A DNA stretch of 64,000 nt from an uncultured virus (IMG/VR IMGVR_UViG_3300018080_008055) (Duplodnaviria; Heunggongvirae; Uroviricota; Caudoviricetes): IMG/VR virus record IMGVR_UViG_3300018080_008055; one strand, 5' to 3'. Position numbers and translations under genes: made by a program. This document shows, one piece after another, positions 10,724-60,303 of the stretch (positions are counted from its first letter, which is position 1; every line of letters begins with the position of its first letter). Under the pieces are notes generated by a model. That model was not told the origin of the DNA and did no database searches. It was given only the letters and a program-made list of their open reading frames with translations.

Positions 10724-10897
10724 CTATTTTTTTTTATTCCATTGTTTTAAGTGTTCTTTGCATAAAGCTACTCCTACATTACCGGCTTGTACTATTTTTA
10801 TATATTTTTCCTTACAACCGGAGACTGAACAAATGTCTTCCGGAACTTTAGTATTTATAGATTCCCAATTCATATACTCTTTAATATTTTCATACAT
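10724..10897 (-). CDS. Small Cx4C...CxxH zinc-finger protein, 57 aa (not in ORF track)
   Basis: MYENIKEYMNWESINTKVPEDICSVSGCKEKYIKIVQAGNVGVALCKEHLKQWNKKK; start overlaps the upstream stop. Confidence 0.65.
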   Translation of the reverse strand: MYENIKEYMNWESINTKVPEDICSVSGCKEKYIKIVQAGNVGVALCKEHLKQWNKKK

Positions 10898-11645
10898 TTT
10901 TTTTTTCCTCCGTTTTGGTTTTATTTATTTTGGTAAAACTTGTAATTCTTTTTTGTTCTAAGACTCCTAGCTTACTTGCAAAAGCTATTGATCTTAGATA
11001 CCTTTCTTTCTCATTTTTAAGTTCAAATACTACTAAGACCGGACAAATTTTGCAACCGGAATGATTAAGATCGGGATATTTTTTTCTTAATCTCCTTATA
11101 CAAATTTCCGGTATTTCTCTTTTGAAATAGTCTCTAAAAGGATAACAGTATAATTGACCTTTCTTGTGTCGGTGAAAGAAAGTAGGTTTATTTTCATTCA
11201 TGTTATTTACATTAGTTCCGTTTCTCATTTGCGTTAGCCAAATCCTACGTTGTGTTCCGTCTCCATGCTTAATACCGGAGATTACAACTGTGTTTTCTTC
11301 TAAAAATTGTTTATCATTGAGAAAGGCCTTATGCTTAATATGATAACAACATGGGAAGACCTTTTTATTATATTTACCGGCTTTTCTTAGTTTCATAGCC
11401 TCTGGAATTTTTAAAAAAGATTCTTTTAAGATATTTGCATAATTAAACTTCTTTCCAGGCTTGATCTGAATAAAATTAGGATCTTTAGCAATTAAGCTAA
11501 GAGTTTTAGATTGCTCATAAGGGTTAAAACAATTTACCGGATAAACTCTTTTACTATAAGATTTCTTTAGTTTTTCATAGAGGTAAGTAGAATCAATTCC
11601 TCCGGAGACTAATACAAAGATTTTTTCAAAATTTTTTAAATTCAA
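10890..11645 (-). CDS. PAPS reductase/DndC-like PP-loop protein
   Basis: VSGGIDS PP-loop, CCYHIK, GIKHGDGTQRR, HSGCKICP. Confidence 0.75.
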   Translation of the reverse strand: MNLKNFEKIFVLVSGGIDSTYLYEKLKKSYSKRVYPVNCFNPYEQSKTLSLIAKDPNFIQIKPGKKFNYANILKESFLKIPEAMKLRKAGKYNKKVFPCCYHIKHKAFLNDKQFLEENTVVISGIKHGDGTQRRIWLTQMRNGTNVNNMNENKPTFFHRHKKGQLYCYPFRDYFKREIPEICIRRLRKKYPDLNHSGCKICPVLVVFELKNEKERYLRSIAFASKLGVLEQKRITSFTKINKTKTEEKKNV

Positions 11646-11948
11646 TTTTTTTCTCCAAATGTATATTGTTATAGTATGTTATAGTAAATGATTCTTAGCT
11701 ATTTAAGGGTTATTATTTGTTATAGTGTTTTTATTTTATGATAACTTATAATAACGATTTACAGAATATTGAGGAGCTTATCCAGGTCTATATTTTCAGT
11801 AAATAATCTATAAGATATTAGGAGATCCGGAGACCTCTCGTTGTTAGCTTTAGCCTGGAACTCTTATTCTATGACTTCTCACTATATCTGAAAGAACTAG
11901 ATAAAATGAAATTAAAGGTCTTTAAGTATAGAAATAAAAAGAGAGTAT

Positions 11949-12257
11949 CTAAGAGGCTAGTTGGAAATTTCTAATGATTTTCCTTTTAGTCTTAGTCTTT
12001 ATCGGTTTTTTAGGTAGTTCATAAAGAGTTCTATTATTTGTTTCTGTTAAGAAGATTATTCCATTATTATTTAGGAGTTTTAAATTTCTCCAAATCCAAT
12101 TGATTTGACTTTTATCATTGGATTTAATCTCTAAGAGTCTTCTTATTCTTTTAGTGTCAATAAAGGATCTATTTTGTTCTATAAAATTATTAATAATATC
12201 AACTATATTTTCAAATAATCTTTTTTGAGTATTATTCATCATTGTTTGTTTTTCCAT
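11949..12257 (-). CDS. wHTH-like protein
   Basis: IDTKRIRRLLEI...IWRNLKLLNNNGII...LYEL. Confidence 0.55.
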   Translation of the reverse strand: MEKQTMMNNTQKRLFENIVDIINNFIEQNRSFIDTKRIRRLLEIKSNDKSQINWIWRNLKLLNNNGIIFLTETNNRTLYELPKKPIKTKTKRKIIRNFQLAS

Positions 12258-12368
12258 TGTTTGTAGTATGACTAGAGATTTTATTTTTCCAATAGAAAAA
12301 ATGGTCTATCTCTTTTCAATGTTAATATATTGCTATGATACAATTTAATGGTTAATATTTTTTCTAAT

Positions 12369-12499
12369 GACTAGTCGTAAGTCTTTTTTAGGTTAAAGAA
12401 AAGAATATTTAATGGTTTTGTAATTCCAGGCTTGAGGCCTAAAAATTAATATTTTTCTCCCGGAGTTCCAGGCTTTTTTTTTGATCATTTTCGATCATT
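12369..12499. repeat. Copy 2 of the ~135 bp dispersed intergenic element
   Basis: GACTAGTCGTAA at 12369; 12424-12499 is nearly identical to 8265-8340. Confidence 0.9.
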
Positions 12500-12545
12500 T
12501 TAAGGTCCTATAAATAGAGTTAAAAATTGAGGAAAAAAAATTTTG

Positions 12546-12932: not shown

Positions 12933-12977
12933 TTAAAACATCTTCTTATTTTTGAATATTTTTTTATCCATTATTTA

Positions 12978-13448: not shown

Positions 13449-13504
13449 ATGAAGTAAATTTATTGTTAATTATTATTTAATTTTGATTTTAATAAATATT
13501 AGGT

Positions 13505-14920
13505 TTAAGTATAAAAATCATTATTAAAATTCTTCTCGGTTTGATTTTTCTCTTTTGGAGACTCTGGATTAAGTAAATTAATCAGATTTGAAAAATTGTT
13601 ATTTAGGGTTTGTAAATTATTTGTTAATTGTGATATTTGGTTGTTGGTTTGTTGATTTTGATTAGCTAGGACAACAATAGCTTTTTCTATCTTATCAAAT
13701 CTATTATCATGGCTTTGTTGATTATTGAGAATTTGATCTATAGAGGAGATCTTATTGTCTAAATCGGAGATCTTATTTTCTATATCTTCAATTTTTCCAG
13801 GTAGTTTTTCTTGAATATCTAATATATTAAATCCTTTCTCTATATCGGAAAATTCGATCTCTCCGGATTCTTTAGGCGAGTTATCAATTGCTATTTCTTT
13901 ATTTGTACCGGTTATCTTTGCAGTAATATATTTTCCTAATCCGGCTAATGAATTTATGTCCTCTCTATATTCTATGGCGATATGGATTTTTTTATGAAGT
14001 ATTGGTTCATCTCCGATTATTTTGAATCCTATCGTATTAAAGAAGTCTTTGCAATGTCTTACGTCGTTTTCTCTCTCATGGAAATAATTGATAAAGCCTT
14101 TGGTTGTGGAGACTTCCGATTGATCTTTTGGTCGGTTGAAATTAAAGGCTATATTATGAATATTTATCTCAACGGATTCTATTCCTCCAAAATCAGCTTG
14201 ATTCAGATATATGTAATACTTAGGCCTTTTCCAATTTTTTAATATCGTAGGTTTAAAAAAAATCTCTTTTGATTTAGTTTTATGCTTTTGTAATTTATAT
14301 TTTCCATTGGCTAACTTAATAGGATTATAAGATTTAATCCAATTAGGTATATCTCCTAAATCTAAACGGAAAGATAAATTATGGATATGTTCGGTTATTA
14401 CTCCAAAATAATTATTGAATCGTTTTTCTTGGTCTAGATTTTCAATTGTAGTCTTTGATTTTGCACTAGTTAAACCATATTTTAAATAGAATTTTCCGGC
14501 ACTAGATAATTTATAAAAGTTAGGTCTAGTGCTAGTTTGTTCAATGTATTTGTTTTTCTTTAACCAATTTATCATTTTGTAAATTTTAGAATGATGGATC
14601 TTTAGTTTTTTGGAGATCATATAACCATGAAAACTTTTATCAGTCCTAGAAAGATGTTTTAAAATCTCTTGTTTTAACTGATAGTCTTGATCAATTAGGC
14701 TAGTTTGTTTCGTACTAGATTTTTTTGATTTTTTGATTTGAAAGTTAATATAATCAATTAATTGAACTCTATTAATAGTAATGTATTTAGAACAATACTT
14801 ACATTTAGCAACCGGATTCTTAGGAATTTTTTTAATATCTTTTGGAGAGTATAATTGACCTTTATATCCTTTCCGGTTCTTTTTACAATGCTTACATTCT
14901 ACTATTAGTGAGATCTTCAT
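13505..14920 (-). CDS. Zn-ribbon + wHTH + unknown domain + coiled-coil protein
   Basis: CKHC...CKYC; ISKKLKIHHSKIYKMINWLKKNKYI...YKLSSAG; heptad-like C-terminus. Confidence 0.7.
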   Translation of the reverse strand: MKISLIVECKHCKKNRKGYKGQLYSPKDIKKIPKNPVAKCKYCSKYITINRVQLIDYINFQIKKSKKSSTKQTSLIDQDYQLKQEILKHLSRTDKSFHGYMISKKLKIHHSKIYKMINWLKKNKYIEQTSTRPNFYKLSSAGKFYLKYGLTSAKSKTTIENLDQEKRFNNYFGVITEHIHNLSFRLDLGDIPNWIKSYNPIKLANGKYKLQKHKTKSKEIFFKPTILKNWKRPKYYIYLNQADFGGIESVEINIHNIAFNFNRPKDQSEVSTTKGFINYFHERENDVRHCKDFFNTIGFKIIGDEPILHKKIHIAIEYREDINSLAGLGKYITAKITGTNKEIAIDNSPKESGEIEFSDIEKGFNILDIQEKLPGKIEDIENKISDLDNKISSIDQILNNQQSHDNRFDKIEKAIVVLANQNQQTNNQISQLTNNLQTLNNNFSNLINLLNPESPKEKNQTEKNFNNDFYT

Positions 14921-15432: not shown

Positions 15433-15435
15433 TTT

Positions 15436-17922
15436 TTATTTCTTCCTCCTTTTTCTTTTAATTGGTTTATATTCTGGTTTTTTTTTAGATGTGAATTGTT
15501 GAATAAATTTTTCTTTTTTTTCAATTGAAGTAAATAAGAAGTCTTCAATTTTCGTTTGTATAAATTTTTGATTTCTAATAATACAAGTTTGCTCTCTTAG
15601 ATAAGTTTGAAAAGTTTTGTAATTTGCAGGTTTATTTTTCTTAGAATTATAAAATCTATTTATTATACATAATTGTTGATAATTCATGTGAAGATGCAAC
15701 TTCCGTTTAATTATTCCGGAAAGAATATGAATATTGATATAGGTAAATAATTTCTTATTCACTTCAGTTTTAAATAGGTTTATATCATCTTTGGTTAAAG
15801 GAATGATCTTTTCTATAAATTTTAAAAGTAAGCCGGTTCTATAACTCTCCTTTAACGTATAAAATACTTTTGCTTTTTTAAGTTTCTCGATTAGGTTATC
15901 CGTTTCTTCAAAGGTAAAACTTTTAGTTCCTAAATATATTTTACCTACGATTCTATCTATTATATCACGGTCTCTAACTTTTATTGCTTTATCTAAATCA
16001 TAGTTTATGCTTTTGGCCATTGAGTCTATTAATTTGAAGAGGTATAGGCTTTTAGAGAAATAATTCTTCCTTTGTTGTTTTACAATATACGATTTGAATC
16101 TTCTTAATTGGGTAAAACTCATATTGCCGAATATTTGCTTATAGTCTTCTTGGAATTGATTGTGATAAGCGATCTGAATTAAACTATGAACTTTGATATG
16201 ATTACTTAAAAAGTCAAATTCTCTATAAAATGAAAAGCCTGGAGTTTTTATTGCTTTTGAAAAAGTAAGTAATAGTTTTTTGTCAAAAGCAATAGCATTT
16301 CTGGGTTGATCTTTTGTATTGACTTTAAGACTCTCTAAGATTCTTTTATAATCAAAATAATTAAAATCAAAAAGAGCAATATTAAAAATTGTGTGTTGGA
16401 TTACGTCTATTTCATTAGTTTTGTTGAAATGTTTTAATATCTTTTCTATAATTTCTTCTTTCTTAAGTTTGTGTTGCTCTTGATCTTCTTTCAATTCTTC
16501 TAAGAGATTATTGGTTTTTTTAGCTATTATTTTTAAATAATAACTATTAAATTGTCTCATTGCATAACCATCTCTCTCTTCATCTAATAAGTCAAAATCA
16601 ATTCTTTCTTTGATAAGTTTTATATTCTTATAGTCTAAATTGTATTGGTTTAATCGGTTTAATAAATATAGATCGAATCCGGGATAATTCTTCTTATCAT
16701 AAATAGTGAAAAGAAATTCCATTAGCCGTTCATATTCTTTAGTTCCTGAAGTTGTAAATACTTTAGTCTCTTGTTCGTGCCAATTAAAATTCTTAGTTGA
16801 GTCATGTTTTGGAAAGAAATGTTTTATAATAATTGAATCAAAGAGTTTATAAACGGAGTGCTGATGAAGTTCCTCAAACACAAATAAATCAAATATGGAT
16901 TCTAATTCCTCATACGTAAATTGATTTAGATAGCCTCTATTTATTATATATTCTTGGGTTGAAACATTTTTCATTAAGCCTTTATCATAGGCCTCTCTTG
17001 ATTCTTCGATTCTTTCGGCTATTTCTGATTTAAACATTTTTAAGGCTTTTGGATCTCCGGCTTGTGCTAATCTATTTAGTAATGGAAAGGCCAAATTTCT
17101 CCTCAATAGTCTAGTATTATAATCGTGTTCAAACCATGCTTGAAGATTTGAGCAATGACCTTTGAACTCCTCTTCTTTAGAAAGACTCCTTACTACTTTT
17201 TCATATCCTTTTTGGTTTTGTTCATGTCTCCCGATATAATTCTCGGCTAACTGATCTATTGAAGTAAGCTCTTGTTGATTTTTAACAGTCTCCTGGGGAT
17301 TATGAAGTAAGAGATATTTACATTGGATAAATTCTTGAAAATAGCCGTTTTTATTCCTAATAAAAATTTTAGTATCTCCTTTAACTAATCTCAGTTCAAT
17401 TAAATGTTTATCTTCTTTTATTTGTTGTTCAGTTCCTATTTTGAATATTTCATTGAACTTAGGATTTTCCCATAAAAAGATTACAAAGGAAGTATCGTTA
17501 GTCGGGTGATTTGTAAAAAATTCTATAAACTCCAGGTAAGATTTAAAACCGTCGTTATGAGCTAAGTCATACCAAGTTTCGTTAGGAATTGGAGATTCTA
17601 ACTTCTTAGCTTCTAAATCACTAACTAAAGGAATATCCTTTAATTGAAAATAATATTTGTCTTTTATCGTTCTATCAAATAGAAATTTTCTATTTTTACT
17701 TCTTTGGTTAATCCAAATATGAGCAATATCGCCAATATTCATTTTATCTCTATAATTGTTTTTTCCCATTGCTCTTATAGTCCTAGTCTTTTCTCCATTT
17801 TCTAATTTAGGCTCTAACCAAGCCATAAATGATAAATTTTGATTCATTTGGTTTTCCTCCAGGCTTTCATTCTCCAAATAATTTTTGATATAATTTTTGG
17901 GTTGATAAACCATATAATTCAT
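15436..17922 (-). CDS. ASCH domain fused to a Lokiarchaeia-type domain and a helical C-terminal region
   Basis: LSF...GEKTRTIR...GD...LAHNDGFKS (ASCH); QCKYLLL...SIDQLAE...EEEFKGHCSNLQAWFEHDYNTRLLRRNLAFPLL. Confidence 0.7.
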   Translation of the reverse strand: MNYMVYQPKNYIKNYLENESLEENQMNQNLSFMAWLEPKLENGEKTRTIRAMGKNNYRDKMNIGDIAHIWINQRSKNRKFLFDRTIKDKYYFQLKDIPLVSDLEAKKLESPIPNETWYDLAHNDGFKSYLEFIEFFTNHPTNDTSFVIFLWENPKFNEIFKIGTEQQIKEDKHLIELRLVKGDTKIFIRNKNGYFQEFIQCKYLLLHNPQETVKNQQELTSIDQLAENYIGRHEQNQKGYEKVVRSLSKEEEFKGHCSNLQAWFEHDYNTRLLRRNLAFPLLNRLAQAGDPKALKMFKSEIAERIEESREAYDKGLMKNVSTQEYIINRGYLNQFTYEELESIFDLFVFEELHQHSVYKLFDSIIIKHFFPKHDSTKNFNWHEQETKVFTTSGTKEYERLMEFLFTIYDKKNYPGFDLYLLNRLNQYNLDYKNIKLIKERIDFDLLDEERDGYAMRQFNSYYLKIIAKKTNNLLEELKEDQEQHKLKKEEIIEKILKHFNKTNEIDVIQHTIFNIALFDFNYFDYKRILESLKVNTKDQPRNAIAFDKKLLLTFSKAIKTPGFSFYREFDFLSNHIKVHSLIQIAYHNQFQEDYKQIFGNMSFTQLRRFKSYIVKQQRKNYFSKSLYLFKLIDSMAKSINYDLDKAIKVRDRDIIDRIVGKIYLGTKSFTFEETDNLIEKLKKAKVFYTLKESYRTGLLLKFIEKIIPLTKDDINLFKTEVNKKLFTYINIHILSGIIKRKLHLHMNYQQLCIINRFYNSKKNKPANYKTFQTYLREQTCIIRNQKFIQTKIEDFLFTSIEKKEKFIQQFTSKKKPEYKPIKRKRRKK

Positions 17923-18654: not shown

Positions 18655-18659
18655 TTTAT

Positions 18660-18959
18660 CTATTCCTCTAATAATTCATATTTTTTTATATAGTGAATGA
18701 ATTTATCTAATTCTTTTTGTAGATTTGATTTTTTCTTTATATCATTTATTCTCGTTTTAATATTTGCTATTTCAATAGTAATCCAATGGAGATTTGCTAA
18801 GTTTTCATGTGGTGATATGTTTTTTTTATTTCGATTATATTCATAGGCCTCCAATTGTATTTCTTCTAATTTCTCATCTAATTTCTTGAATAGGTTTATC
18901 AAATAGCTTTTAGAGGTATTGATAAATTCGGTTTCTTTTTCGTTTTTCAATTTATTCAC
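18660..18959 (-). CDS. Hypothetical helical protein with PIP-like QKELDKFI
   Basis: ORF in operon. Confidence 0.55.
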   Translation of the reverse strand: MNKLKNEKETEFINTSKSYLINLFKKLDEKLEEIQLEAYEYNRNKKNISPHENLANLHWITIEIANIKTRINDIKKKSNLQKELDKFIHYIKKYELLEE

Positions 18960-20135: not shown

Positions 20136-20864
20136 TCATCTAAAATAATCCTCCATATTCTTAAATTCAATTTTATCTGTTTTGATTTCAAAAATTTGAT
20201 TTAGATTTTCGATAAATTCATTCTTTCCTCCATAGCTAGGATGTCGTATTTTGGAAATGGTAATATCCGGTATATCGTTGTTTTCTCTTAATTCTTTGAG
20301 ACAATTGAAAGCTATTTTTCCTATTCCATGAGCTTCTTTAAAATCAAATACTTTAAACAGTTGTAATATGTATTTTTTCCCCTCTTCTATTTCTTCCTTA
20401 CTTGGAGTTCTATTAGTCTCAAGCTCTCCGGTATTATGAGGATGAAATGGAAAGGTATTAAACAAAACACATTTAGAAAAAAGTTTTGGATTTTTTTCAA
20501 AAAAGCCATAGACTATTGTTGCCGAGTTTTCAGTATAAATTTTAAAATCATAATCTATATCCTTTCTTATCTCTCTAAAGAGTCTATGTTTCTTTAAAAT
20601 CTTAGTACTAGTAAAAGCAATTCCCGAATGCTTTAATCCGTTGTACCCTCCGGCTTCTCCTAAGAGTAATATTTTAGCTTCTTTATAGAATAGATATTTA
20701 AGATAAGTTAATTTATTATGGTATTGAGTTGTAGTATCTACAAAAGGTTTCTTAACTATTCGATAAGGATTATATACTAATTCATTTGGTTTTCTTTGAA
20801 CTAACATATCCATTAGTTCGTATAAATCCTCTTCTAATAATTGTCTTCTATAAGGATAACCCAT
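20136..20864 (-). CDS. Uracil-DNA glycosylase superfamily protein
   Basis: GEAGGYNG..SGIAFTS, ENSATIV, NTFPFHPH, NRTP, IRHPSYGG. Confidence 0.85.
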   Translation of the reverse strand: MGYPYRRQLLEEDLYELMDMLVQRKPNELVYNPYRIVKKPFVDTTTQYHNKLTYLKYLFYKEAKILLLGEAGGYNGLKHSGIAFTSTKILKKHRLFREIRKDIDYDFKIYTENSATIVYGFFEKNPKLFSKCVLFNTFPFHPHNTGELETNRTPSKEEIEEGKKYILQLFKVFDFKEAHGIGKIAFNCLKELRENNDIPDITISKIRHPSYGGKNEFIENLNQIFEIKTDKIEFKNMEDYFR

Positions 20865-20989: not shown

Positions 20990-21397
20990 TTATTTACCAT
21001 CTCCATATTTGTTCTTAAACTTTAAAATATATTCTTTTAGACCTTCTTCATCATCTTCATAAATTAAATCAAAAATAGTCTCCATATTAAAATCGGGATA
21101 TTTGTTTTTAACGATTACATGAAATTTATAATTGTCTTTAGATAATTTTTCAAACCCATAGGCGTAATCAGAGATATAGCCTTTATCTTTAGAAAACTCA
21201 AACCATCTAATATACGGTTGATACTTATTCAATACTTTAGAATCTATATTGAAAGCCGTATACTTTGTTATAAATAGTAAAATTTCATATTCCGCTTCTT
21301 CCTCTGGTTTAATATAATGAACTTCTAAAAAGAGAGGAGAACTTCTTTTATCTTTCTTAATTGATTTTTCGTATTTATTCATTTTTAGGTGCCTCAC
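20990..21397 (-). CDS. Hypothetical protein
   Basis: ORF in operon. Confidence 0.6.
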   Translation of the reverse strand: MRHLKMNKYEKSIKKDKRSSPLFLEVHYIKPEEEAEYEILLFITKYTAFNIDSKVLNKYQPYIRWFEFSKDKGYISDYAYGFEKLSKDNYKFHVIVKNKYPDFNMETIFDLIYEDDEEGLKEYILKFKNKYGDGK

Positions 21398-22623
21398 TTT
21401 GAGAAGAAACTTTCTATAGTCTTTTGTTTATTATCCTTTCTCATTTTTGGAGTTTTCTTAATATCATAATTGCAAATCATATATTCCGTTTTTTCTATTT
21501 GGTTTTTTGCACTAGTGCAGTATTTTATTTTAACTGGTATTACTTTCCAATTATCTAAATCCTTAAACTCATCAATATAGAACTTACATTCCCCTCCAAT
21601 ACTAGTAAGGAAATGGAAAGGAGTTTCTTTCATAATATTTATCAAATCATAATGATCATTCATAGTAAATCTATAGATTGTGTAATATTGCTCAGTACTA
21701 GGATATGGAGGATCAGCATAAATAAAACATTCTTTTGTTAATCCTTTTTCTGTATAAAAGGCTTTAAGAAATCTTTTATATGCTTTTCGGAAATCATAAC
21801 TAGTTAAATTTATAAATTGCAATCGTTCAATTAGCTTAGGATCAACCTCAGTTAATAAGCCTCCATCAGCATTAGAAATAGGCCTGGTTGTTTTTGGAGA
21901 TAAACCTCTGAAATTAGGAAATATCCTAGAGATCTGTTTATAATATTCAATTGATTCTTTTGTAGAAATGGATTTACAAACAGTTGGGAGAGTTATACCT
22001 CTATAATTCATATCAACTTTTTCTCCCGGAATATAAAAATAATTAACAGCCTGGATTCTCATAGCTTTTATTAAACCTCTAATATTCTTTATTGTTTCTC
22101 CAATTGCTTTTGAATTATCTGGATTAAATAATTTGAGAGCTTTTAATTGAGCAATATTCCATTTATATAAGCTCACTAATGAAAGATTAAAATATGCTAA
22201 TCCCATTTCCTTTATCAAATTATAATCATAAGTTCCTGAGCCTCCAAAACCTAACTTATTTGAATAATAGAAATAATAAGCATTTTCAATTTTATTTTTA
22301 GGAATTGTCTTTCCGGCTCTCATTCTTTCAAAAACAAATTGAGAGAGCAAACCTAAAGTACCGGTTTTTAAGAAATCAAACTCTTTTGGGAAATCTCGAA
22401 TAACTTCAAAATAGTTAATATAATTATTGTCAATATCATTGAAACATTCATATTTATAGGCCTTTGGTTTATTAACCTCATATACACATGACCCCGCAAA
22501 TAGAGTTTGAAAATAATCATGGAAAGGAGTATTATCTTCTAGTTTCTTTCTTAGCCGGTATTTACCTCCAATTTGATTTATTTGAGGAGGTATATATTCA
22601 GTCATTTCTTTTTTTCTCTCCAT
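21394..22623 (-). CDS. DNA adenine methyltransferase (Dam-like D12 class) with large insertion and C-terminal PIP box
   Basis: GGKYRL, LFAGS, FNDID, IYADPPY, EYMICNY; ends QKTIESFFSK. Confidence 0.85.
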   Translation of the reverse strand: MERKKEMTEYIPPQINQIGGKYRLRKKLEDNTPFHDYFQTLFAGSCVYEVNKPKAYKYECFNDIDNNYINYFEVIRDFPKEFDFLKTGTLGLLSQFVFERMRAGKTIPKNKIENAYYFYYSNKLGFGGSGTYDYNLIKEMGLAYFNLSLVSLYKWNIAQLKALKLFNPDNSKAIGETIKNIRGLIKAMRIQAVNYFYIPGEKVDMNYRGITLPTVCKSISTKESIEYYKQISRIFPNFRGLSPKTTRPISNADGGLLTEVDPKLIERLQFINLTSYDFRKAYKRFLKAFYTEKGLTKECFIYADPPYPSTEQYYTIYRFTMNDHYDLINIMKETPFHFLTSIGGECKFYIDEFKDLDNWKVIPVKIKYCTSAKNQIEKTEYMICNYDIKKTPKMRKDNKQKTIESFFSK

Positions 22624-24482: not shown

Positions 24483-26673
24483 TTATACATAATGAAATTT
24501 CAGAAGCAATAGATAGTATTATATCAATTACTTGACCGAATATTTTATTATCTTTTTTAATAGAAAATTCGATTATTGTTTTTGTTTCGTGTTTTTTACT
24601 AGAACCTTTTACAGACATTACTATCCCTAGCTTTTCTAATTCGATTAATTTCTTTCTTATCTTTTTAGGTCTCTTAAGTTCTATTTCCTCTATTGGTATT
24701 TTTTCCTCTTTTTTAACAAACTCATAAGTAATATATAGCTTAACAAGATCGTCTGGTCCTAATTGATTACTACCACAATTAAATTGAACAGTAATATCAT
24801 CTTCTAGTTTTTCATAATTGATTTCTATTTCTTGTTCATCTAGTTCAGTAAATTCCGTAAATCTTAGAGTATTATGTATATAGTCTGAATCCGGAATACT
24901 TTGATATGATTTGAACTTATAATAATAAACTATTACCTTAGAATAATTACAATTCATACAATAGAAAGGAATTACTACTTTTGCAATTTCTTTATTATAT
25001 TCATAATCTTCTAGCTCATCAGATTCTAGTTCTTTATGTTTGCATTTTGATTTATTGGTTTTCATTTTTAGCCTCTTCTTTCTTTATTTGGTTTTTATAG
25101 AAAAGTGTTCTCAAATTATCCATTAAGTCAATATAACTCCAAAAGTTCATAGTTCCTTTAGCTAAATTATCATCGCCAATATCAAAATCAAAATCAACTA
25201 GATTGGGATTATTCTCATTTAGTTTCATTTCAAATTTTTTAAAAGTGATCTCCGGATTTGGCTTTCTTGTTAATGAATCCATGTACTCTCTTGTTTGAGT
25301 AATTTCCTTTCTGATTTCACATAGAATAGAAAGTAATATATCTTTTTTTCTTATTTTAACAGTTTCTCCTTTTTCATCCAAAACTTTCAATTACCTTTCC
25401 TCCTCTAAACCAATTAAAGATTTTTTAAATTTAATGTGAATCTCCATATCAGTAATAAAAAATTCTTCTAAGTCATATTGGCTAGCAATTTCATTTATCT
25501 TTTGAATATCCTCTAGCCAATATGAATTTCCAGATTTAAGATAAATTATAAAATAATCAACTGAACTATAGGCATTATTTAAAACGGTAATATCTCCGAT
25601 TAATTTACCATAACCTCTATATTCATTAAAAAGCTCAGAAATAAATTTTTCTAATCGGCTATTTCTAAGATAGTTTAATACATTAGGTTGTTTTAGGAGA
25701 GTTCTTAGATAGTTCTTTTGCTCTTCTGTAAGATTTCCTAAGAACTCTGAGATTTTAAGTTCATAGTATTCTAATTTATCGCTATAATTATTAATTTTAA
25801 TTTTAACAAGTTCTTTCTCTTCCATTTTTTATTTACCTCTTTTTTTCTCCTCCAGGAGTAATTCTTTCATTCTCTTATTGTGTTGCTTTTGCCATTTGAA
25901 AAATGTATCACCCTCAAAAAAGCCTTTCCAAAAATAAGCATTACATTTTATACAAGTATATGGTTCTTTTGGATTATATTTCTTAGTTAGTATAATACCA
26001 CAACAATATAACCGGTTGTTATAAAGACCGGTTATGATCTGATTTTTTATTTTTTTCTTTGTCATTTTTTTAAACATATTTAATCCTCCAATAATTCTAT
26101 TATATTTAATATATCTTCAGATAAGCAAGTGATCTCTTCAGTATCTACTAAATCATCTATATCGAAAGCCTTAAGAATAGCCTCTTTAATTTTTGTTTTA
26201 TTATCTTTTTTAGTTTCTTTTTCATTAATAGTCTTATTAGCCTCTTTAAGTATATCATTAAGATCATATCCAAGAAAACCCGAATTATTTTGAAAGATCG
26301 CTTGGATTTGAATACATAAGTCTCCTAACAATTTCTTATCTATTTCTTTAATTTGAATTAATTGAATCCATAATATTTTAGAGAGGATGAACATTTCTTT
26401 ATATTCCTCTTTAGGAATAGAGATTATGTTTTCCCAATCTATTCTTGGTTTAGGAATTATAGATCTCCTCCGATTTTGTTTTTTGTTTTATTTTTTCAAA
26501 AATTAGACCAAATATAAAACTAAATCCTAATATCCAAAATAAGATAATCGTTAGAAATATTACTTGGAAAATTGCTATGATTATTTTTAATTTAAGAAAA
26601 GCAACTATTAGGAAAAAGGGAATTAGCATTAAAAAAAAGTAAGCTAACTCTAAAACTTCTTTTTTAGGTATTT

Positions 26674-27240
26674 TCAAAATATAACTTCCTCCTCGATATT
26701 TTTATTAATTTCACAAACAACCCTTTGTCTAACTTTTCTTTTTGGTTCAATTATCGGATATGTTTGAAACCAGGCTTTCTTTCTTTTGTTATGATTATGA
26801 AGACTCTCTAAATCTTCTAAGTTATTATCAACCACTTTTACCAAATGTTTTTTACAGAGTCTTACTTTCCAATCAACACTAAAACCATAAAGGTTATCTC
26901 CATAATCATTACAACCGATTACCTCACATGAATTTTCAGAGTAAGGAATTTGATCTAATAAGATCCAATCAAAATCCTCTATCTCCTCTTCTTTTTCTAT
27001 ACATTTTTTTAAATGCTTTTCACACAACCAAACCTTATTATTCATGCTTAAACCATATTGGTTAGAGGCTAATGATTTACAACCCGGCTTTTCACACTTA
27101 GGAATATCCGGATTCTTTTCAATTAATCTAGCCTCCAAATAGAAGAAAGCCTTTTTGTTTGAATTATGAATCTTATTCCTCTCTTTAATATCTAAAGAGG
27201 TAATCGCCGATAATTCCAATTCTTCTATAAATTTATTCAA
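26674..27240 (-). CDS. Protein with two tandem Cx4C...CxxH zinc fingers
   Basis: CEKPGC...YGLS...WLCEKHL and CEVIGC...YGFS...RLCKKHL. Confidence 0.7.
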   Translation of the reverse strand: MNKFIEELELSAITSLDIKERNKIHNSNKKAFFYLEARLIEKNPDIPKCEKPGCKSLASNQYGLSMNNKVWLCEKHLKKCIEKEEEIEDFDWILLDQIPYSENSCEVIGCNDYGDNLYGFSVDWKVRLCKKHLVKVVDNNLEDLESLHNHNKRKKAWFQTYPIIEPKRKVRQRVVCEINKNIEEEVIF

Positions 27241-29005
27241 TTTATTTCCTCCTTGTAGTATTTTTTTAAGACGTTAAAAATAGCCGTCTTCTTTTAGGTC
27301 TTTATGTATTTCATTTATTAGGTTTTCAATGGTTATTCTAATATCTTTAATCTTTATATTGGATATATCCATTAACTTTTGTAAAAGCTCTTGGTTAAGA
27401 GGAACTAATACCTTTATGGAATTTAAATAATCCTCCAGGCTTATCTTTCCCCCATCTTTAAGTTTTACTATGAAGTTTTCTGTTTTTGTTAAGGCTTTTA
27501 ATAGATAAAATAAATTCTCCTCAGAAACCTCAACTTTCTGATTATATTCTCTTTTTAGCATATCTTTATTTTCAATACACATAATTAAACTCCTAATGTT
27601 TTTTCTTTTCTATTTTCTCAATTAAAAATAAAAGATATTCAATGAATTTGACCTTACCTTTATGTTCATGATAGTAATTTGTTTTCTCTTGGCTTTTCAT
27701 AAACTCTGATAAATAATGATAATGCTCTTTTAATTCATTTAGTTTCTTTTTTATTTTATCAATTGGTATAGTTTCAATGCTCATAGATTATATATCCTCC
27801 AATTCTACTATATTTTTATCAATTATTTCTTATTTTGTTTAGTTTCTCTTTCTCGCTTTATTTTAGCAATTTCCAAGTCTTTATTTTCGGTAATTATCTC
27901 AGCTTGAAATTTTTTAATTTTCTTTGACATTCCGATCTTTATATTTTTAGGAGTCTCCATAAAGATAAATCCCTCTCCGGTATTTAAACGATCAAACAAT
28001 ATTATCGCTTGGTTTATCAGATCAACTAATTGAGTTTTTTCCATAATTGATCCGTTTTTAATTTCTTTCCAATTTCTATTTTGAAATTTATCAAAACAGT
28101 TCTTTAATCGTTTTCTTAACTCATTAGTTCCGGTTGATTTCCAGGTATCGCCAAGTTCCTCTTCTTTCTCTTTTAGCCGGTTTGTCAAATATGCTAAAAC
28201 TTTATTGATTAGAATATGATAATCTCCATAAGAACCATTATGATCTTTTAGAAATTCTTTTAGAATTGGAGTATTTTTAAACTTCTCTAAATCCTTATAT
28301 ATATAATCAACTAAGGTATTAAAGCTATAAATATTAAAGTCAAACTCCTCTCCATTACGATCTTTTCTTATAATAATATTGATCATTCCTAATTCATTTG
28401 TAGTAATTCTTATTGAATATTCCATTTAGTTTTCCTCCTCTCTTACTTGTTCTATCCAAGCATATAAATAATCTAGAATATCTGGTTTATCTTTTATTGA
28501 ATCAAGAAAATCTTTTAATGAATCTAATAATTGTTTTCTCACATACTTATAATCTTTTATAGCTCTCTCTTGGATTTTTTTAGCATTGTTAAACATTTTA
28601 TTTACCTCTAGCTTTTCTTGTTTGTGATTTCTTCCAGGTTGCTTTATTAAACCAATGATCTAAAATTTTTATAAAGGTCCTAGCATTTGGATTTATTCTA
28701 ATTTCTAAATCCATTTCTATAATTCGATTTACATTGAACTTACTTAAATCATAATGAGGTTTTACATAAGGAGATGAAAAATCCGGGATTCCTCCTTTTA
28801 TTTCAATTAGTTGTTTCTTTAGCATTCCTTTCAATGTATCGTCAAAGCTAGATTGCATTACGATCTTTATTGCTTTAGCCATAGCCTTACTGAGCTTAAC
28901 ATAACCCTCATTGATATAGACCTCAAATTCGGCCATGACTTTAAGGAACTCATATTGTCTTTTACTGATATTAAACCATGAATATTTTGGCATTTTATTT
29001 TCTCT

Positions 29006-29248
29006 TTAAGATAATTTTTTTACTCCTATTGTTAATTCTTTTGCACTAGTATATTTATGAATATAGATTACTCTAAAACTATAAGTCTCTTTTAATGTTT
29101 CTACAAGTTCTTTAATTTCAGAATCCTCTATGATATTATGAATATCTAAAACTAAATCAATTAGCTTTAAATCATCTTCTAAGATCTTATCCGTTAATTC
29201 CTCTTCCTCTCTTACGATTATTTCACTTGTCATATTATAACCAATCAA
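29006..29248 (-). CDS. Hypothetical protein, paralog of 33540..33842
   Basis: IIVREEEELT...YIHKYTSAKELTIGVK. Confidence 0.7.
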   Translation of the reverse strand: MIGYNMTSEIIVREEEELTDKILEDDLKLIDLVLDIHNIIEDSEIKELVETLKETYSFRVIYIHKYTSAKELTIGVKKLS

Positions 29249-29999: not shown

Positions 30000-31560
30000 T
30001 TAAATTTCTTGTTTTTTAATTTCTATTGAACTAATATCATAATCATAGACTTCAGTATGTTTCATAATACGTTTTAAACTTTCAAGAATTTTATTGAATA
30101 CTGACTCTTTAACAACTATAGGATTTTCTTGAGTTATACCCAAATCTATTTCAAGAATCAAATTTATAAAACCTTTATTATGGAATTCTTTTTTATTTTC
30201 TATTTTTTTACTCATAAGATCAAAGACCTCTTCTTTTGTTTGAACTTACTACATTCATTTGGATTTGTTTGATTACATTCTCCATAAGGTCTTTCGGCTT
30301 CGCATGATAAGATATTACAATCTAAGTAAAAATGCTTACATGCTTTTAATCGATCAATTTTGCTAATACATTTATCACAATAGATAAAAGACTTTTTATT
30401 TTTCCAAATTTTTATTGATTCTTCGATTGTGCAATCTTCAAATGTATCATGCTCACCTATAAAGAATTTAACCTTTGAATTACAAATACAACAATTACGT
30501 TTCTTTTTTACTTTATATTTAATATCTTCAATTTTAACTCTCAATTAATATTCCTCCAATATATAATTCTCTTAAATTGATTTGATAATTTATTTAATCC
30601 TAGAATAAAGAAATTCTCTTCCGGAAATAAGTAATAAGAACACTCTCCGGCCTCTTCATAATCAAATGAATATCCTCCAAAAATACATTCCTTTTGATCT
30701 GCGAATAAATGACAAAAGTAAATAGGTTTCCCACTTCCTATTTCGATTATTGTATTTTTATATGGACATATTTTCTGTTTAGCTTTTTTAGGTATTTTAA
30801 TCATTTTCCTCAACTACTTTCTTTATAAATGCTTTCTGAATCTTTCCATGACTTATCAAATAATTTTTCAAAACAATCTCTACAAAAAGTCTTATATCCA
30901 TAGAGATATGAAAATCTCCTATTTTTTATATAACAATCATCTTTAATATCAATATGATATCTTCCTTTGGATTTCTCTATTGGTTCTTTACATTCATTAC
31001 AGAAGTTAATATCTCCTAAAGGATTGGTAAAATATTCTCTCTTACTTTTTGTCATTCCTATTCTTCACTCCTTAATCTGTTTAATTCTTCTTCTAACTCT
31101 TTTATTCTTTCTATTGAACCAATAGATTCTAATGAACCATCGTCTTGAGGTTTAATTAATAGAGTCATTTCAGTAGGTCTAAGAACTATTATTGGTATTT
31201 CTATTTTAACCGGAAAGACTTTTTCATCGTGTAATTTTACAAAATTATTGGTCTTAAAGAATCTAATTGAAAAATCCTTAGATCTAATGGCGAGATAAAA
31301 TTGTAATTGAATATCCTTTCCGTTATTAATTATTTTTGTCATTTCCAAGAAATTTCTCCTTTTTCTATTTTCTTTTTTATATCAATGATTACATCTTCAA
31401 TTAGAGTTCCTGGAGGATATTTGATTGTTTCAAAAAAGTTCCATTTCCAAGCTATACTAATATGTAGGCTTGTATCTTTATTCCTATAACCTCTTATAGC
31501 ATATTCTTCATCTAACTTTTCATGGAATATTTTTTTACTTTTTGAAAATTTACTCAACAA
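30000..31560 (-). other. Six small hypothetical genes, three of them Cys-rich/zinc-finger
   Basis: Track ORFs 30000..30215, 30212..30544, 30541..30813, 30810..31055, 31058..31348, 31339..31560. Confidence 0.6.
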
Positions 31561-32191
31561 TTATTACCTCTTGATTTTCGGGTTTGAATTTTTTATGATC
31601 TAATGACTCTCCTAAAGTTGTTATTGGATTGTCATGTTTCTTAAAGATAATAACTACTAAAGGAAATGTAGAACCTGAACCGATCTTATCTTCTTTCATT
31701 AGTAAGTTATAACATTTACGACAAACTCTGATCTTCATTTTTCTAATTAGAATTGGTTTTGAAGTCCTTTTATTACAATTATAGCATGGAATAAAAAAAT
31801 CAACTCTTCCTTTGCAAAATAGAATTTTGTATGATTTCATTATATAATCGTGCCAATAGGCCGTATCAGTCCTAGATGGGATAATCATAACTATAATCGT
31901 ATTCTCAAATTGACTCTCTAAGTAAGCCTTTTCAATAAACTCTTTAGCTTTTGAAAATGGAGGATTTAAAAAGCCGATCTCATTCTTCCAATTCTGTTCT
32001 AAAGCATTATCCTCCTCAGTATAATACCTCTTGCATAAAGCATTTTCTTTTGAACTTGCTAAATCAATAGTAAATTCAAAAGAATCTCCAAATTCTTTTT
32101 TCATCTCCTTTTGGAGAAATTCAAAAAAATATCTAGGAGTTTCCCAAGAATCATTTGAATTTTTAGTTCTAGAATATACTTCTTTATTCAA
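31550..32191 (-). CDS. Phage-type DNA N6-adenine methyltransferase with inserted Zn ribbon
   Basis: DSWETP, IDLAS, FLNPPFS, PSRTDTAYWH, GRVDF. Confidence 0.85.
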   Translation of the reverse strand: MNKEVYSRTKNSNDSWETPRYFFEFLQKEMKKEFGDSFEFTIDLASSKENALCKRYYTEEDNALEQNWKNEIGFLNPPFSKAKEFIEKAYLESQFENTIIVMIIPSRTDTAYWHDYIMKSYKILFCKGRVDFFIPCYNCNKRTSKPILIRKMKIRVCRKCYNLLMKEDKIGSGSTFPLVVIIFKKHDNPITTLGESLDHKKFKPENQEVIIVE

Positions 32192-56971: not shown

Positions 56972-57030
56972 TGTTATCAATTAGTTTTATTTTATTATAA
57001 ATTTAGATTAAAAAAATAAAAAGATTAGGT

Positions 57031-57390
57031 TTAATTATTTTTAGGAGGAAATAAAAAATCATTTATAGCTTTCTTTTGTAATTTCCTATCCTTAATCTTA
57101 ACGGTTTTTCTTGAAAATCGCCTATTTACCATTAACCATTTTAGACCTGTATCAATTATGTTCTTAGATACTTTTTGATTTCTCCTAAAGTCTTTTGAAC
57201 TCATTTTACCCTCGCTTAGATCTTCCCACATTTTACTTATAGAGGTAATCTTCTTTTTAACTCTCATTCGATATAACTCTAAAATAATATGTTCGCCATT
57301 ATGGTAAGTACTAGCTATTCCTCCATCTTCAGTAATGATTATGGTTTCTTTAGGATTCTCAATTATTATTAAGGCTTTTGCTAATTTCAT
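57031..57390 (-). CDS. Hypothetical basic protein
   Basis: Flanked by promoter copies. Confidence 0.65.
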   Translation of the reverse strand: MKLAKALIIIENPKETIIITEDGGIASTYHNGEHIILELYRMRVKKKITSISKMWEDLSEGKMSSKDFRRNQKVSKNIIDTGLKWLMVNRRFSRKTVKIKDRKLQKKAINDFLFPPKNN

Positions 57391-57463
57391 TTTAATATTC
57401 CATATTTGTTTTTAATTTAAATATATAAATAATACTTAGATTAAAAAAATAAAAAGATTAAGG

Positions 57464-57700: not shown

Positions 57701-57702
57701 TT

Positions 57703-58008: not shown

Positions 58009-58098
58009 ATTTTATCAACTCATTGATTTTTATATTTATTAAAATGTATAAGTGTGATTAAAATTAAGATTAAAAAAATATAAAGTTCTAGTAAGCTC

Positions 58099-58797
58099 TT
58101 AGAGATTAGAAGAATTGTAATTGATTTTTCCTTTTCTAGTTAATCTTATCATTCCATTTCTTACCAAAATGAATTTTTGGAATTTTAGGAGTTTTAATGA
58201 ATCCTCTTTATAACTCCAATGGTTTTTAGCTCTTGTTATTGAAATAGGTTGATTTTCAGCTATAAAATCTAAAAACATTCTATCATAAGCCTTTAGAGGC
58301 CTATTATCTACATGAAATTCTAGACCTTTATTACTAATTTTATAGAGCTTTGATTTTCCGGATTTTTTTATGATTATGAATTTTCTCTCTAAAGGAGTTT
58401 TAATTGAGGTTCTAACTGAGGATTCACTAATCTTTAGGTTTAAGGCTATTTCTTTTATGGAATACCAAGTTGTTTTATGATCTCTTAAAAAGGAGATTAG
58501 CTTTTTTTGATTCTTCCCTAGTTTTATATAAGATACTTTAGAGGTATAGTTTAGCTTTCTTCTTAGGTCTTCTATTTTCCGTTTAGTATTATAATAATCG
58601 TGTTCAATTTGTTTGAAATTGTTTTTTCTTTCCCATTCCTTTCTCTCTAATCTTTCTGGATGAGTTTTGATTAGCATACTTGTATAAGGATATTTATTTC
58701 TTCTAATCTTATATAATTTCCAATATTCCTTATCTAATTGTTTAAATTTTTTAACCAGGCTTTCTAATTTTAACCATTGTGGAGTTAAATAGCTCAT
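58099..58797 (-). CDS. Protein with two wHTH domains
   Basis: SIKEIALNLKISESSVRTSI...LYKISNKG; second unit ...IRLTRKG. Confidence 0.7.
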   Translation of the reverse strand: MSYLTPQWLKLESLVKKFKQLDKEYWKLYKIRRNKYPYTSMLIKTHPERLERKEWERKNNFKQIEHDYYNTKRKIEDLRRKLNYTSKVSYIKLGKNQKKLISFLRDHKTTWYSIKEIALNLKISESSVRTSIKTPLERKFIIIKKSGKSKLYKISNKGLEFHVDNRPLKAYDRMFLDFIAENQPISITRAKNHWSYKEDSLKLLKFQKFILVRNGMIRLTRKGKINYNSSNL

Positions 58798-58810
58798 TTT
58801 AATTTACCTT

Positions 58811-59143
58811 TTAATTTTTTGATTTCGTTTTAAAATACGTTGAGATATTTCCGGGAAGTCTTTTGTAAATCCAATTATTTTTAGTTAATTGATTATAACT
58901 AATTCTTTTATTGGTAATATCTCTCCAAACATTATTATAAGTTTGATTCAAATAGCCTTTTGTTTCTGTTGTTTTACTTCCGGAGAAATTCTTTCCTAAT
59001 ATAAGATCCTCTATTTCCTCCTCAACTTTAATCGGTAATTTTCCGGATTCATACCAAGTTGAAACCCAATTTGGTAAAATATCATATCTAAAATAAAGTG
59101 TGTATAATAATTTCTTGGTTTTATTTAGTTCTTTTATTCCCAT
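58811..59143 (-). CDS. Hypothetical protein
   Basis: ORF in operon. Confidence 0.6.
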   Translation of the reverse strand: MGIKELNKTKKLLYTLYFRYDILPNWVSTWYESGKLPIKVEEEIEDLILGKNFSGSKTTETKGYLNQTYNNVWRDITNKRISYNQLTKNNWIYKRLPGNISTYFKTKSKN

Positions 59144-59155
59144 AAAGTTTAACCT

Positions 59156-59485
59156 TTATTTGTTTAGAATCTTACCTCTCAATTCATTAACGGCTTGGCT
59201 TTTCTCTCGAATTATTTTGCTATACCAATAATAAATAGTTTCTCGCCTCATTGACTTTATATTGAGAAATAATGTATCAACCTCTCTCATAGAGGATACT
59301 CGGCTAATTGTTTTAAAAATAACAAAAAGTTTTACGGCTTGATGTTCCTCTAATTTAGGTTTCTTTAATAGTTCTTTTATATATGGTTCTACTATACTTT
59401 TTCTCCAATTAGAAATAGAGGTTTTTTCCTTTCCGACTTGAACAATTGCTTTATCTTTATAATTTGTGATTTTTACTTTAACCAT
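59156..59485 (-). CDS. Hypothetical protein with a MxxExxYYWYSK motif
   Basis: LEEHQAVKLFVIFK...IKSMRRETIYYWYSKI. Confidence 0.6.
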   Translation of the reverse strand: MVKVKITNYKDKAIVQVGKEKTSISNWRKSIVEPYIKELLKKPKLEEHQAVKLFVIFKTISRVSSMREVDTLFLNIKSMRRETIYYWYSKIIREKSQAVNELRGKILNK

Positions 59486-59544
59486 GATTAAAAGTTGATT
59501 TAAGTTTGATTTAAGTTTTGTGCTAGGTTTGAATTTATTCTATT

Positions 59545-60303
59545 CTAAATATATTTTATAATGCTATTTTGATTTTTAGAAGTTTTTTTTAAATTGCTTA
59601 ACCAAATATTTTTAGCAACACTAGGCTTATTAAGAATTTTTTCCCATTTAATAAAATCATTATATAAATTTGGAAAATCCTTAAGGACCTTAATATAGAT
59701 ATAAGCCTGGTAAAATCTACACCAATAACAAGAAGAGACTCCATATTTTTTATAATAATTTTTAGTAGGAATTTTAATTTCGTTTTTTTCTATAAAACGA
59801 TCTCTAAAAGAAGTATTCCAATTTAATAGGGGGAAAACCATTATATCGTTGTTAGTGTCATAGTCGGGTTTAAAGAAGTCATTTCCTTTATAAATTTTAT
59901 TTCTCCTAGAGCTTTCATTTTTTCTTACAGCATTCAATTTATAAAAAACTCCTTTTTCAAATTCCTTTTCTAACACTTTTTTTTGAGGCCTCCATTTCAA
60001 ATCTCTAGAACACCAAGCCGTTTGAAAATTAGGAAAGTTTCTTTTATGATCCTCTGGGTTTGAAATCAACAAATCTAGTTCAAGTGATTTTGCCGTTTTT
60101 TTAATTGCCTCTAAAGTTCCCGGAAATTCAATACCGGAATCACAATAAAAACAGATAAAATTATCAGTAATCTTCTTTACTAAATGTAGTAAGGCTATTG
60201 AATCTTTTCCTCCGGAAAAATTAATGATTAATGGTTTTTTAGTCTCTCTTACGGCTTTTTTAATGACTCTAATTGAGCTTTTCAATGGATTATCTTCGAT
60301 CAT
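59545..60303 (-). CDS. PAPS reductase family protein (DndC/SspD-like) with PIP-like C-terminus
   Basis: FSGGKDS, DSGIEFP, WCSRDLKWRP, VRKNESSRR, PLLNW, SCYWC; ends QNSIIKYI. Confidence 0.85.
   Translation of the reverse strand: MIEDNPLKSSIRVIKKAVRETKKPLIINFSGGKDSIALLHLVKKITDNFICFYCDSGIEFPGTLEAIKKTAKSLELDLLISNPEDHKRNFPNFQTAWCSRDLKWRPQKKVLEKEFEKGVFYKLNAVRKNESSRRNKIYKGNDFFKPDYDTNNDIMVFPLLNWNTSFRDRFIEKNEIKIPTKNYYKKYGVSSCYWCRFYQAYIYIKVLKDFPNLYNDFIKWEKILNKPSVAKNIWLSNLKKTSKNQNSIIKYI

Follow-up and report, generated by a model that had tools for sequence, protein, structure and literature searches.

Described systems and the window

In the known phosphorothioation systems, a protein with a 3'-phosphoadenosine 5'-phosphosulfate (PAPS) reductase domain requires an NTPase partner, DndD, SspC, or BrxC, as set out in PMC12914056. 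DndC combines a three-cysteine 4Fe-4S center with a cysteine dyad, according to PMC10853773. Genes for PAPS reductases are also carried by viruses. They are commonly catalogued as auxiliary metabolic genes, those of Asgard viruses included ("Viruses of Asgard archaea," 10.1101/2021.07.29.453957), and for phages their function is called unknown (PMC11437467). Here we describe two PAPS-reductase-like PP-loop proteins, A and B, encoded in a 64,000-nucleotide stretch of DNA (hereafter, the window) from the uncultured virus IMGVR_UViG_3300018080_008055. Together with a DNA methylase and an 828-amino-acid (aa) protein, they carry short C-terminal tails that resemble PCNA-interacting protein (PIP) boxes.

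PIP-box clients of archaeal or eukaryotic PCNA include FEN1, DNA ligase, RNase HII, and the archaeal uracil-DNA glycosylases (UDGs), and DNMT1 is a clamp-tethered maintenance methylase. The tails described here resemble those of such clients in that a short C-terminal Qxx[ILM]xx[FY][FYLI] motif sits on a flexible stretch and, in a structural model, occupies the pocket and the interdomain-connector site of the clamp. They differ in the identity of the clients, which are encoded by a virus and comprise a D12/Dam-like methylase, PAPS-reductase-like PP-loop proteins, and an ASCH-like scaffold. The predicted coupling of the window's DNA methylase to the clamp is reminiscent of DNMT1. The literature that we searched, with most subscription journals outside its scope, has no report of PIP tails on archaeal-virus enzymes or of clamp motifs on viral PAPS reductases, and it yielded no described PIP for any of these kinds of client.

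Conserved C-terminal motifs

A sequence-only reading of the window had claimed PIP boxes in six proteins. All six motifs are found where they were claimed, in minus-strand open reading frames (ORFs), and comparison with homologs bears out most of the claim: it supports four motifs, leaves a fifth doubtful, and marks the sixth as a probable chance occurrence. The four tails supported as real and conserved are those of the methylase, of PP-loop proteins A and B, and of the 828-aa ASCH-like fusion protein. The homologs compared include those in a related element, G001, whose IMG/VR record spans 93,471 bp, is bounded by direct terminal repeats, and is rated 100% complete. It has BLASTP matches for 62 of the 113 window proteins (the ORFs of at least 60 aa that were kept, 18,702 aa in all).

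The D12-class N6-adenine DNA methyltransferase (409 aa; 21394..22623) matches Pfam PF02086 in two stretches (4.3e-8; 33.6 bits versus a gathering score of 22) and the DNA methyltransferase family phrog_56 (7e-23). Its QKTIESFF (21403-21426), 2 residues before the stop, had been singled out as a perfect PIP box, and it is indeed a strict match. The motif Qxx[LIMV]xx[FYW][FYWLIMV] is found 0 to 15 residues from the C terminus in 29 of the 34 homologs listed (34 to 68% identity), and the remaining 5 have a partial motif or are seemingly shortened. The G001 ortholog ends in QNTLERFF.

Protein B (252 aa; 59545..60303) has QNSIIKYI (59548-59571) as its last 8 residues. Among the best 8 sequences of its family, the query included (at least 53% identity), 7 end in x[KRT]x[LI]xx[FY][LIVF], with Q present in three. 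In protein A (251 aa; 10890..11645), QKRITSFT (10932-10955) is followed by 13 residues. Of 170 A homologs found, 120 were listed and 118 aligned, two fragments having been dropped. At least 7 residues past the conserved ...KLGV are present in 78 homologs, and a terminal xxx[LIMV]xx[FYW] occurs in 41 of these tails, compared with 10.4 +/- 2.8 after shuffling (maximum of 20 over 1,000 shuffles). The A tail is probably flexible, because the last three 10-residue blocks of the AlphaFold2 (AF2) model, from about residue 231, have predicted local distance difference test (pLDDT) values of 59, 60, and 49, compared with 91.4 for the whole model.

In the 828-aa protein (15436..17922), QTKIEDFL (15535-15558) is located 32 residues before the stop. 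The only full-length relative of this protein among 1.84 billion representatives is the 739-aa protein of G001 (34% identity), which ends exactly in QKKITEWF, so that the motif is present in two of two sequences. The protein has no Pfam match, and a single-sequence scan of viral contigs returned nothing. It appears to consist of an ASCH-like N-terminal domain, a helical domain (residues 174 to 350), and an alpha-solenoid-like C-terminal part. In its Atlas model, residues 27 to 155 align with ASCH clusters at template modeling (TM) scores of 0.57 to 0.63 normalized by query, and residues 350 to 828 align with repeat proteins only, at TM scores below 0.5. The domain at residues 174 to 350 is widespread and has no Pfam model. 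It is found in 1,780 representatives at E <= 1e-10 and elsewhere occupies the N terminus of proteins with leucine-rich repeat, Ras/Roc, or Cdc6 AAA+ domains.

The two other tails fare less well. The UDG-superfamily-like protein (242 aa; 20136..20864) matches Pfam PF03167 at 3.7e-5 with 24.3 bits, exactly the cut-off, and the NCBIfam family-4 UDG profile at an E value of 0.07. The claimed motif, FKNMEDYF (20142-20165), is present 1 residue before the stop, lacks the Q, and aligns with FKDLTQFQ in the G001 ortholog (55% identity), the comparison consisting of two sequences. This Q-less PIP-like tail is doubtful. An alignment-based scan of viral contigs found G001 again and no further relatives, a profile search of solved structures returned nothing relevant, and the AF2 model made from the two-row alignment has a pLDDT of 42, too low for use. 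In the 99-aa ORF (18660..18959), QKELDKFI (18696-18719) is followed by 11 residues. We rejected it as a PIP box because it is not conserved: the G001 ortholog (45% identity) reads QLKIDKLK, with no aromatic pair, and the motif is probably a chance match.

A relaxed form of the motif is present in protein B, the 828-aa protein, and the 99-aa ORF; FKNMEDYF departs from it in lacking Q and QKRITSFT in having T at position 8. The number of motifs expected by chance was estimated by shuffling residues within each protein, which keeps its composition, because K, I, L, F, and Y abound in the window's proteins. Over the 113 ORFs, Qxx[LIMV]xx[FYW][FYWLIM] occurs 11 times (5.1 expected). In the last 40 residues it occurs 6 times (1.02 expected), a count reached in none of 400 shuffles, and three motifs end at most 3 residues from the C terminus (0.15 expected; none of 1,000 shuffles). 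All three motifs in the last 40 residues of G001 proteins end exactly at the C terminus (0.23 expected; none of 1,000 shuffles), and they belong to the orthologs of the methylase, the 828-aa protein, and protein B. The reversed motif is never found at the C-terminal end, either in the window or in G001.

One of the three terminal motifs of the window, QTIIAIFI at the end of ORF 60893..61252, is part of a hydrophobic tail and was set aside as probably due to chance. Two further ORFs, absent from the list of the sequence-only reading, carry PIP-like motifs toward their C termini and have no G001 ortholog in the BLASTP comparison. A 144-aa ORF (25391-25825) contains the strict match QYDLEEFF (25457-25480) 21 residues before its stop, and a 119-aa ORF (57031-57390) ends in KKAINDFL (57052-57075) followed by FPPKNN.

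PP-loop proteins A and B

Protein B has a PAPS_reduct domain (Pfam PF01507; 1.6e-18, 67.8 bits versus 22.5) and matches phrog_424 (6.8e-38), the viral "PAPS reductase" family that includes proteins annotated as NinC in lambdoid phages. With the PADLOC profiles, which come without curated cut-offs, it matches SspD over the 209 residues 26 to 234 (6.7e-16, 56.8 bits) and BrxP over the whole domain (5.6e-13, 46 bits), and DndC over the PP-loop only. Its best NCBIfam matches are to the uncharacterized archaeal families PRK08557 and PRK13795 (75 bits), followed by CysD (47.6 bits), all far below the cut-offs. The scores are 32.9 bits for cysH (cut-off of 165.1), 25.1 for PAPS_reductase (cut-off of 254.2), 14.9 for APS_reductase (adenosine 5'-phosphosulfate [APS] reductase; cut-off of 235.3), and 21.5 for DndC (cut-off of 290).

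Protein A is more remote and belongs to a large, undescribed family that has no Pfam model. It can be called a PP-loop protein only by its motif, by a weak match to phrog_424 (3.1e-8), and by its fold; the Pfam match expected of a PAPS-reductase-like protein is missing, as A has no hit to PAPS_reduct or any other Pfam family at E <= 1. No SspD, BrxP, or DndC profile matches it, and a search of solved structures with the A-family profile found no relative by sequence. The nearest structures in Foldseek are TtuA, LarE, CysD, GMP synthetase, and the APS/PAPS reductases (TM scores of 0.32 to 0.49). The possibility that A is a diverged paralog of B was discarded and the two are treated as separate families, because hhalign aligned the PP-loop only.

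Both families keep GCxxC and an SGGxDS motif, the latter in 39 of 40 sequences for B and in 118 of 120 for A. In B the two motifs are SGGKDS and, in the family alignment, invariant C192 and C195, to which the family adds one more invariant cysteine, C98. In A, SGGIDS and C198xxC201 are near-invariant across the 118 aligned sequences, as is an additional cysteine pair, C99-C100. By analogy with DndC, the conserved cysteines of A and B probably hold an iron-sulfur cluster. B, which matches the SspD and BrxP profiles, has a PP-loop and three invariant cysteines as in the 4Fe-4S center of DndC, and the A pair resembles the DndC dyad (PMC10853773). A and B differ from DndC and BrxP in being about half their size, with a predicted clamp-binding tail instead.

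The likeness to CysH consists of the PAPS_reduct domain of B and of the proximity of the A fold to the APS/PAPS reductases (TM scores of 0.41 to 0.49). The C-terminal catalytic cysteine motif of CysH is ECGLH. Neither EC[GA][LIV]H nor CG[LIV]H occurs in any of the 40 B-family or 120 A-family sequences, B scores far below the family cut-offs, and a clamp-type tail replaces the catalytic tail. The sequence-only reading had argued that the PP-loop proteins are not of the metabolic CysH type and that dnd and ssp partner genes are missing. The first point agrees with the absence of the catalytic motif and with the higher scores of B against SspD and BrxP than against cysH. The second is upheld by profile searches, in which none of the 113 window ORFs matched DndA, DndB, DndD, DndE, SspA, SspB, SspC, or BrxC (E <= 0.001).

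The elements that encode A-family proteins elsewhere have 28 to 55% G+C and share little synteny with the window. Seven metagenome loci had flanks that could be used, and in 3 of them the A-family gene has a DNA methylase gene as its immediate neighbor; one of these three also encodes PolB, Dam, and a PD-(D/E)XK nuclease, and in a fourth locus a replication protein adjoins. For protein B, a single-sequence scan of viral contigs gave no match, and a scan of genome contigs with the B alignment found distant relatives only, none of them from Asgard archaea. The B ortholog of G001 (26566-27351) adjoins orthologs of window ORFs 11949..12257 and 13505..14920, near the position where the unrelated protein A sits in the window. 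In the window, about 48 kb separate the B gene from this position, and A is missing from G001.

Relatives in phages and crenarchaeal viruses

A scan of IMG/VR with the B alignment yielded 80 loci (L066-L145), of which 67 were kept (stop codon reached, 180 to 480 aa, PP-loop motif present). QxxLF is found 15 to 17 residues from the C terminus in 33 of these 67 phage relatives, in 25 distinct tails, as in L098:1939-2643, L113:7914-8693, and L117:7995-8693, all phrog_424 relatives of B. Elsewhere in those proteins, over 16,914 residues, it turns up only twice, and no tail contains the reversed motif. According to PMC12309361, the consensus for binding to the bacterial beta-clamp is QL[S/D]LF or, in a more general form, QxxLF; 8 of the 33 tails fit QL[SDT]LF. 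In a MAFFT alignment, the Q of the phage motif shares a column with the Q of the Asgard-virus PIP tails. The four QxxLF loci that were checked belong to tailed phages with bacterial-type replication genes, and in three of them the gene lies among those for helicase, primase, exonuclease, Erf, and initiator proteins. Relatives of the phage B subfamily are present in 222 phage records.

The phage proteins were selected for their similarity to B and represent one related subfamily. Among homologs from cultured phages, QxxLF is present in phage Chi and absent from SF11 NinC, RAP44, and CRP-821 (one of four), which argues against a general trait of the phage members. It could also be structural rather than a clamp motif, because it lies inside a conserved block that runs on to a CSC motif. 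In two crenarchaeal viruses, SMV2 and ATSV, the PAPS-reductase-like protein terminates in an extra CPLC motif and lacks a PIP-like tail, so that such tails are not a general trait of these proteins in archaeal viruses. Within phrog_424, the Asgard-associated clades have a PIP-type tail, a phage subfamily has QxxLF, and crenarchaeal-virus members have an extra CxxC.

Predicted binding to PCNA

None of the 113 window ORFs matches a PCNA family in Pfam. PCNA_N (PF00705) is also missing from the complete G001, while the same search matched in four archaeal control genomes. Some other Asgard viruses encode PCNA, according to PMC11529989. The sequence-only reading had proposed co-folding of the tails with PCNA. 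This was done for B, with residues 213 to 252 (14-row alignment) and, as a stand-in for the host clamp, Swiss-Prot PCNA_METJA, and the tail was placed in the PIP site of this archaeal PCNA. The complex model scored 0.71, compared with 0.05 for the best of 3 controls, and passed a mark that is reached by 116 of 157 solved complexes and by 2 of 215 mismatched pairs. Repeated runs share at least 82% of contacts, with a partner pLDDT of at least 52. In the model, B residues 243 to 252 contact PCNA_METJA residues 40, 44-47, 122-127, 199, 224-225, and 240-246, which we take to be the PIP pocket, the interdomain connector, and the C-terminal strand. The simplest account of these data, and one well supported in silico, is that the tails serve as peptides for binding the clamp.

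Proposed function and alternative explanations

We consider it fairly probable that the clamp tails put viral DNA-modifying enzymes on new viral DNA via the host PCNA. According to this proposal, four proteins (the D12 methylase, PP-loop proteins A and B, and the ASCH-like/helical-repeat protein) would each present a flexible, lysine-rich tail with a Qxx[IL]xx[FY][FILT] motif, which would fit the hydrophobic pocket and the interdomain-connector groove of the host PCNA ring. Binding to PCNA would then place the enzymes on newly replicated viral DNA, where the methylase would mark adenines right behind the fork. The PP-loop enzymes would use ATP to adenylate a position in DNA, either a backbone phosphate or a base carbonyl, and the adenylated oxygen would be swapped for sulfur or another nucleophile. 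DNA is the expected substrate because these proteins would be tethered to the clamp, and ATP-dependent sulfur insertion is suggested because of the likeness to SspD and BrxP and the conserved cysteines. An NTPase partner would not be needed because PCNA would provide the DNA tracking that otherwise comes from DndD, SspC, or BrxC. By analogy with these systems, we hypothesize that the PP-loop proteins add sulfur or a new base to DNA.

Several observations weigh against this proposal. An NTPase partner of the required type is absent among the 113 window ORFs; the contig from which the window comes measures 73,259 bp, about 9 kb more than the window covers. Of the six tails, only QKTIESFF fits the strict consensus Qxx[LIM]xx[FY][FY]. 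The motif of window protein A has T at position 8 with 13 further residues after it, 37 of the 78 A tails lack the terminal motif, and the 41 that have it mostly begin it with N (16 tails) or Y (7 tails) and in only 4 cases with Q. The remaining 32 of 32 listed B homologs are without the terminal motif and stop about 8 residues earlier (one has an internal copy), and PIP-like tails are missing from the SMV2 (L146:1489-2280) and ATSV (L147:1489-2271) proteins. Homologs share descent, so that conservation counts are not independent events. The motif is not enriched in the last 40 residues of G001 proteins (3 versus 1.76 expected, a count reached in 272 of 1,000 shuffles). The modeled PCNA comes from Methanocaldococcus and is not the host's. 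Finally, because PIP-PCNA complexes are well represented among solved structures, the complex model may have passed by likeness to them and not by binding of this copy.

A broader version of the proposal would treat the viral "PAPS reductases" (phrog_424 and the A family) as cross-domain, clamp-tethered, replication-coupled DNA-modifying PP-loop/Fe-S enzymes, bound to PCNA through a PIP tail in Asgard viruses and to the beta-clamp through QxxLF, at the homologous position, in phages. The clamp would replace a DndD/SspC/BrxC-type ATPase, resulting in partner-less phosphorothioate or in thiolated or aminated bases on nascent viral DNA. This generalization is offered tentatively, as a possible rather than a probable one.

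The best surviving alternative is that the tails do bind PCNA, for the purpose of takeover: the proteins would hold or load the host PCNA on viral DNA or displace PIP clients, and the PP-loop proteins, though concentrated at sites of replication, would have a substrate other than DNA, for example nucleotides, tRNA, or a cofactor. No clamp or polymerase is seen in the window, so the virus must recruit host replication factors; the 828-aa protein, with its ASCH-like domain and helical repeats, looks like a scaffold and is no obvious enzyme; and the folds nearest to A are tRNA and cofactor sulfur transferases, TtuA (E value of 3e-4) and LarE. However, one client is unmistakably a DNA methylase, so that at least one client modifies DNA, and in other elements A- and B-type genes adjoin those for DNA methylases and replication proteins. 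The SspD and BrxP profiles also match B over its whole length. We regard the takeover explanation as unlikely.

We see even less reason to expect that the conserved peptide binds a hub other than PCNA, such as a viral protein, RPA, or a polymerase subunit, with a coincidental likeness to PIP boxes. Many A-family tails have a residue other than Q at position 1, the closest homologs of B have K, T, or I there, the modeled PCNA is a stand-in, and the majority of the element's ORFs are without known function, all of which would suit such a hub. Yet the textbook form Qxx[ILM]xx[FYW][FILMV] is kept in 29 of 34 methylases, PIP boxes show the same spacing between hydrophobic residue and aromatic pair and the same extreme C-terminal position, the model seats the B tail in the PIP site but gives no such placement on the controls, and a bacterial clamp motif occupies the same place in phage relatives.

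It is very improbable that A and B are products of auxiliary metabolic genes that serve sulfate assimilation and that their tails are irrelevant. B does have a Pfam PAPS_reduct domain, and the Asgard virus preprint cited above calls such genes PAPS reductase/CysH and suggests that they may boost host sulfur metabolism (10.1101/2021.07.29.453957). Against this assignment stand NCBIfam scores far below the cut-offs for cysH, CysD, and APS reductase, the absence of PAPS_reduct from A, and the conserved tails and the replication and methylase neighborhoods. An ECGLH-like motif is found in neither family. Least credible of all is the view that the motifs are a meaningless by-product of a proteome with a high content of K (12%), I (10.8%), L, F, and Y, in which 5 relaxed motifs are expected by chance, one (in the 99-aa ORF) is not conserved, and another (QTIIAIFI) lies in a hydrophobic tail: composition-keeping shuffles never reach the C-terminal counts, and conservation across homologs of 34 to 68% identity contradicts this view for four proteins, leaving it standing for the 99-aa ORF and possibly the UDG-like ORF.

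The element and its other genes

The window probably covers the greater part of the genome of a virus, or of a virus-like element, that belongs to Asgard archaea. The link to Asgard archaea is drawn because homologs of two of its proteins are named by their sources as coming from Odin-, Hod-, and Helarchaeota metagenome-assembled genomes. It has a G+C content of 27%, and nearly all of its ORFs are on the minus strand; in G001, with 26.7% G+C, a single strand carries all genes. Pfam and PHROG profiles match only a minority of the 113 window ORFs. The identifiable genes encode two adenine methylases (PF02086 and PF05869), the PAPS_reduct-domain protein, the borderline UDG, winged-helix and Cdc6_C-like proteins, and a DUF5131 protein, as well as two proteins of types known from virions, one with a beta-helix and one with a Laminin_G_3 domain.

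The DUF5131 protein (29235-29978; G001 copy 64% identical) weakly resembles "radical SAM mobile pair protein A" as well as the PADLOC candidates PDC-M41B/M30B, and G001 also has a radical-SAM-like ORF. A protein of the Rce1-like CAAX protease family is encoded at 3197-3916 (Pfam, 1e-9), with a G001 copy that is 62% identical. A paper on Asgard mobile elements (PMC11529989) likewise counts a CAAX protein among the hallmark proteins.

The second adenine methylase (31550..32191, minus strand) belongs to the phage Dam family (Pfam PF05869, 2.6e-27) and has no PIP-like tail in its window copy. Its G001 ortholog (L037:1029-1736) has NLTLDKWF 7 residues before the end. GATC is not avoided in the window virus or in G001. 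Several other sites are depleted in G001 (L035-L039): it is nearly without GTAC (1 versus about 69 to 80 expected) and contains 3 CTCG/CGAG (119 expected), 7 CACC/GGTG (108 expected), and 16 TGCA (90 expected), which looks like restriction-site avoidance. Throughout the coding DNA of the window, CCGG is the most overrepresented 4-mer, with 167 copies versus 50.0 in synonymous-codon shuffles (z of 19.7), or 180 versus 20.5 expected from base composition. Among 85 CCG proline codons, 65 are followed by G. Because the CCGG sites are evenly spread and fall in two reading frames, their excess points to selection at the DNA level. G001 has only 7 CCGG sites and a CpG ratio of 0.19, compared with 0.68 in the window.

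Biological significance

The conserved clamp-type tail provides the first concrete, testable handle on the function of viral PAPS reductases, and it points toward the replication fork and not toward sulfate assimilation. The predicted coupling of a Dam-like methylase to PCNA would be an archaeal-virus counterpart of the arrangement of DNMT1 and PCNA in eukaryotes. The tails suggest that Asgard viruses without a clamp of their own equip several enzymes for the clamp of the host. If the parallel with the phage QxxLF motif holds true, the same idea would reach hundreds of phages.

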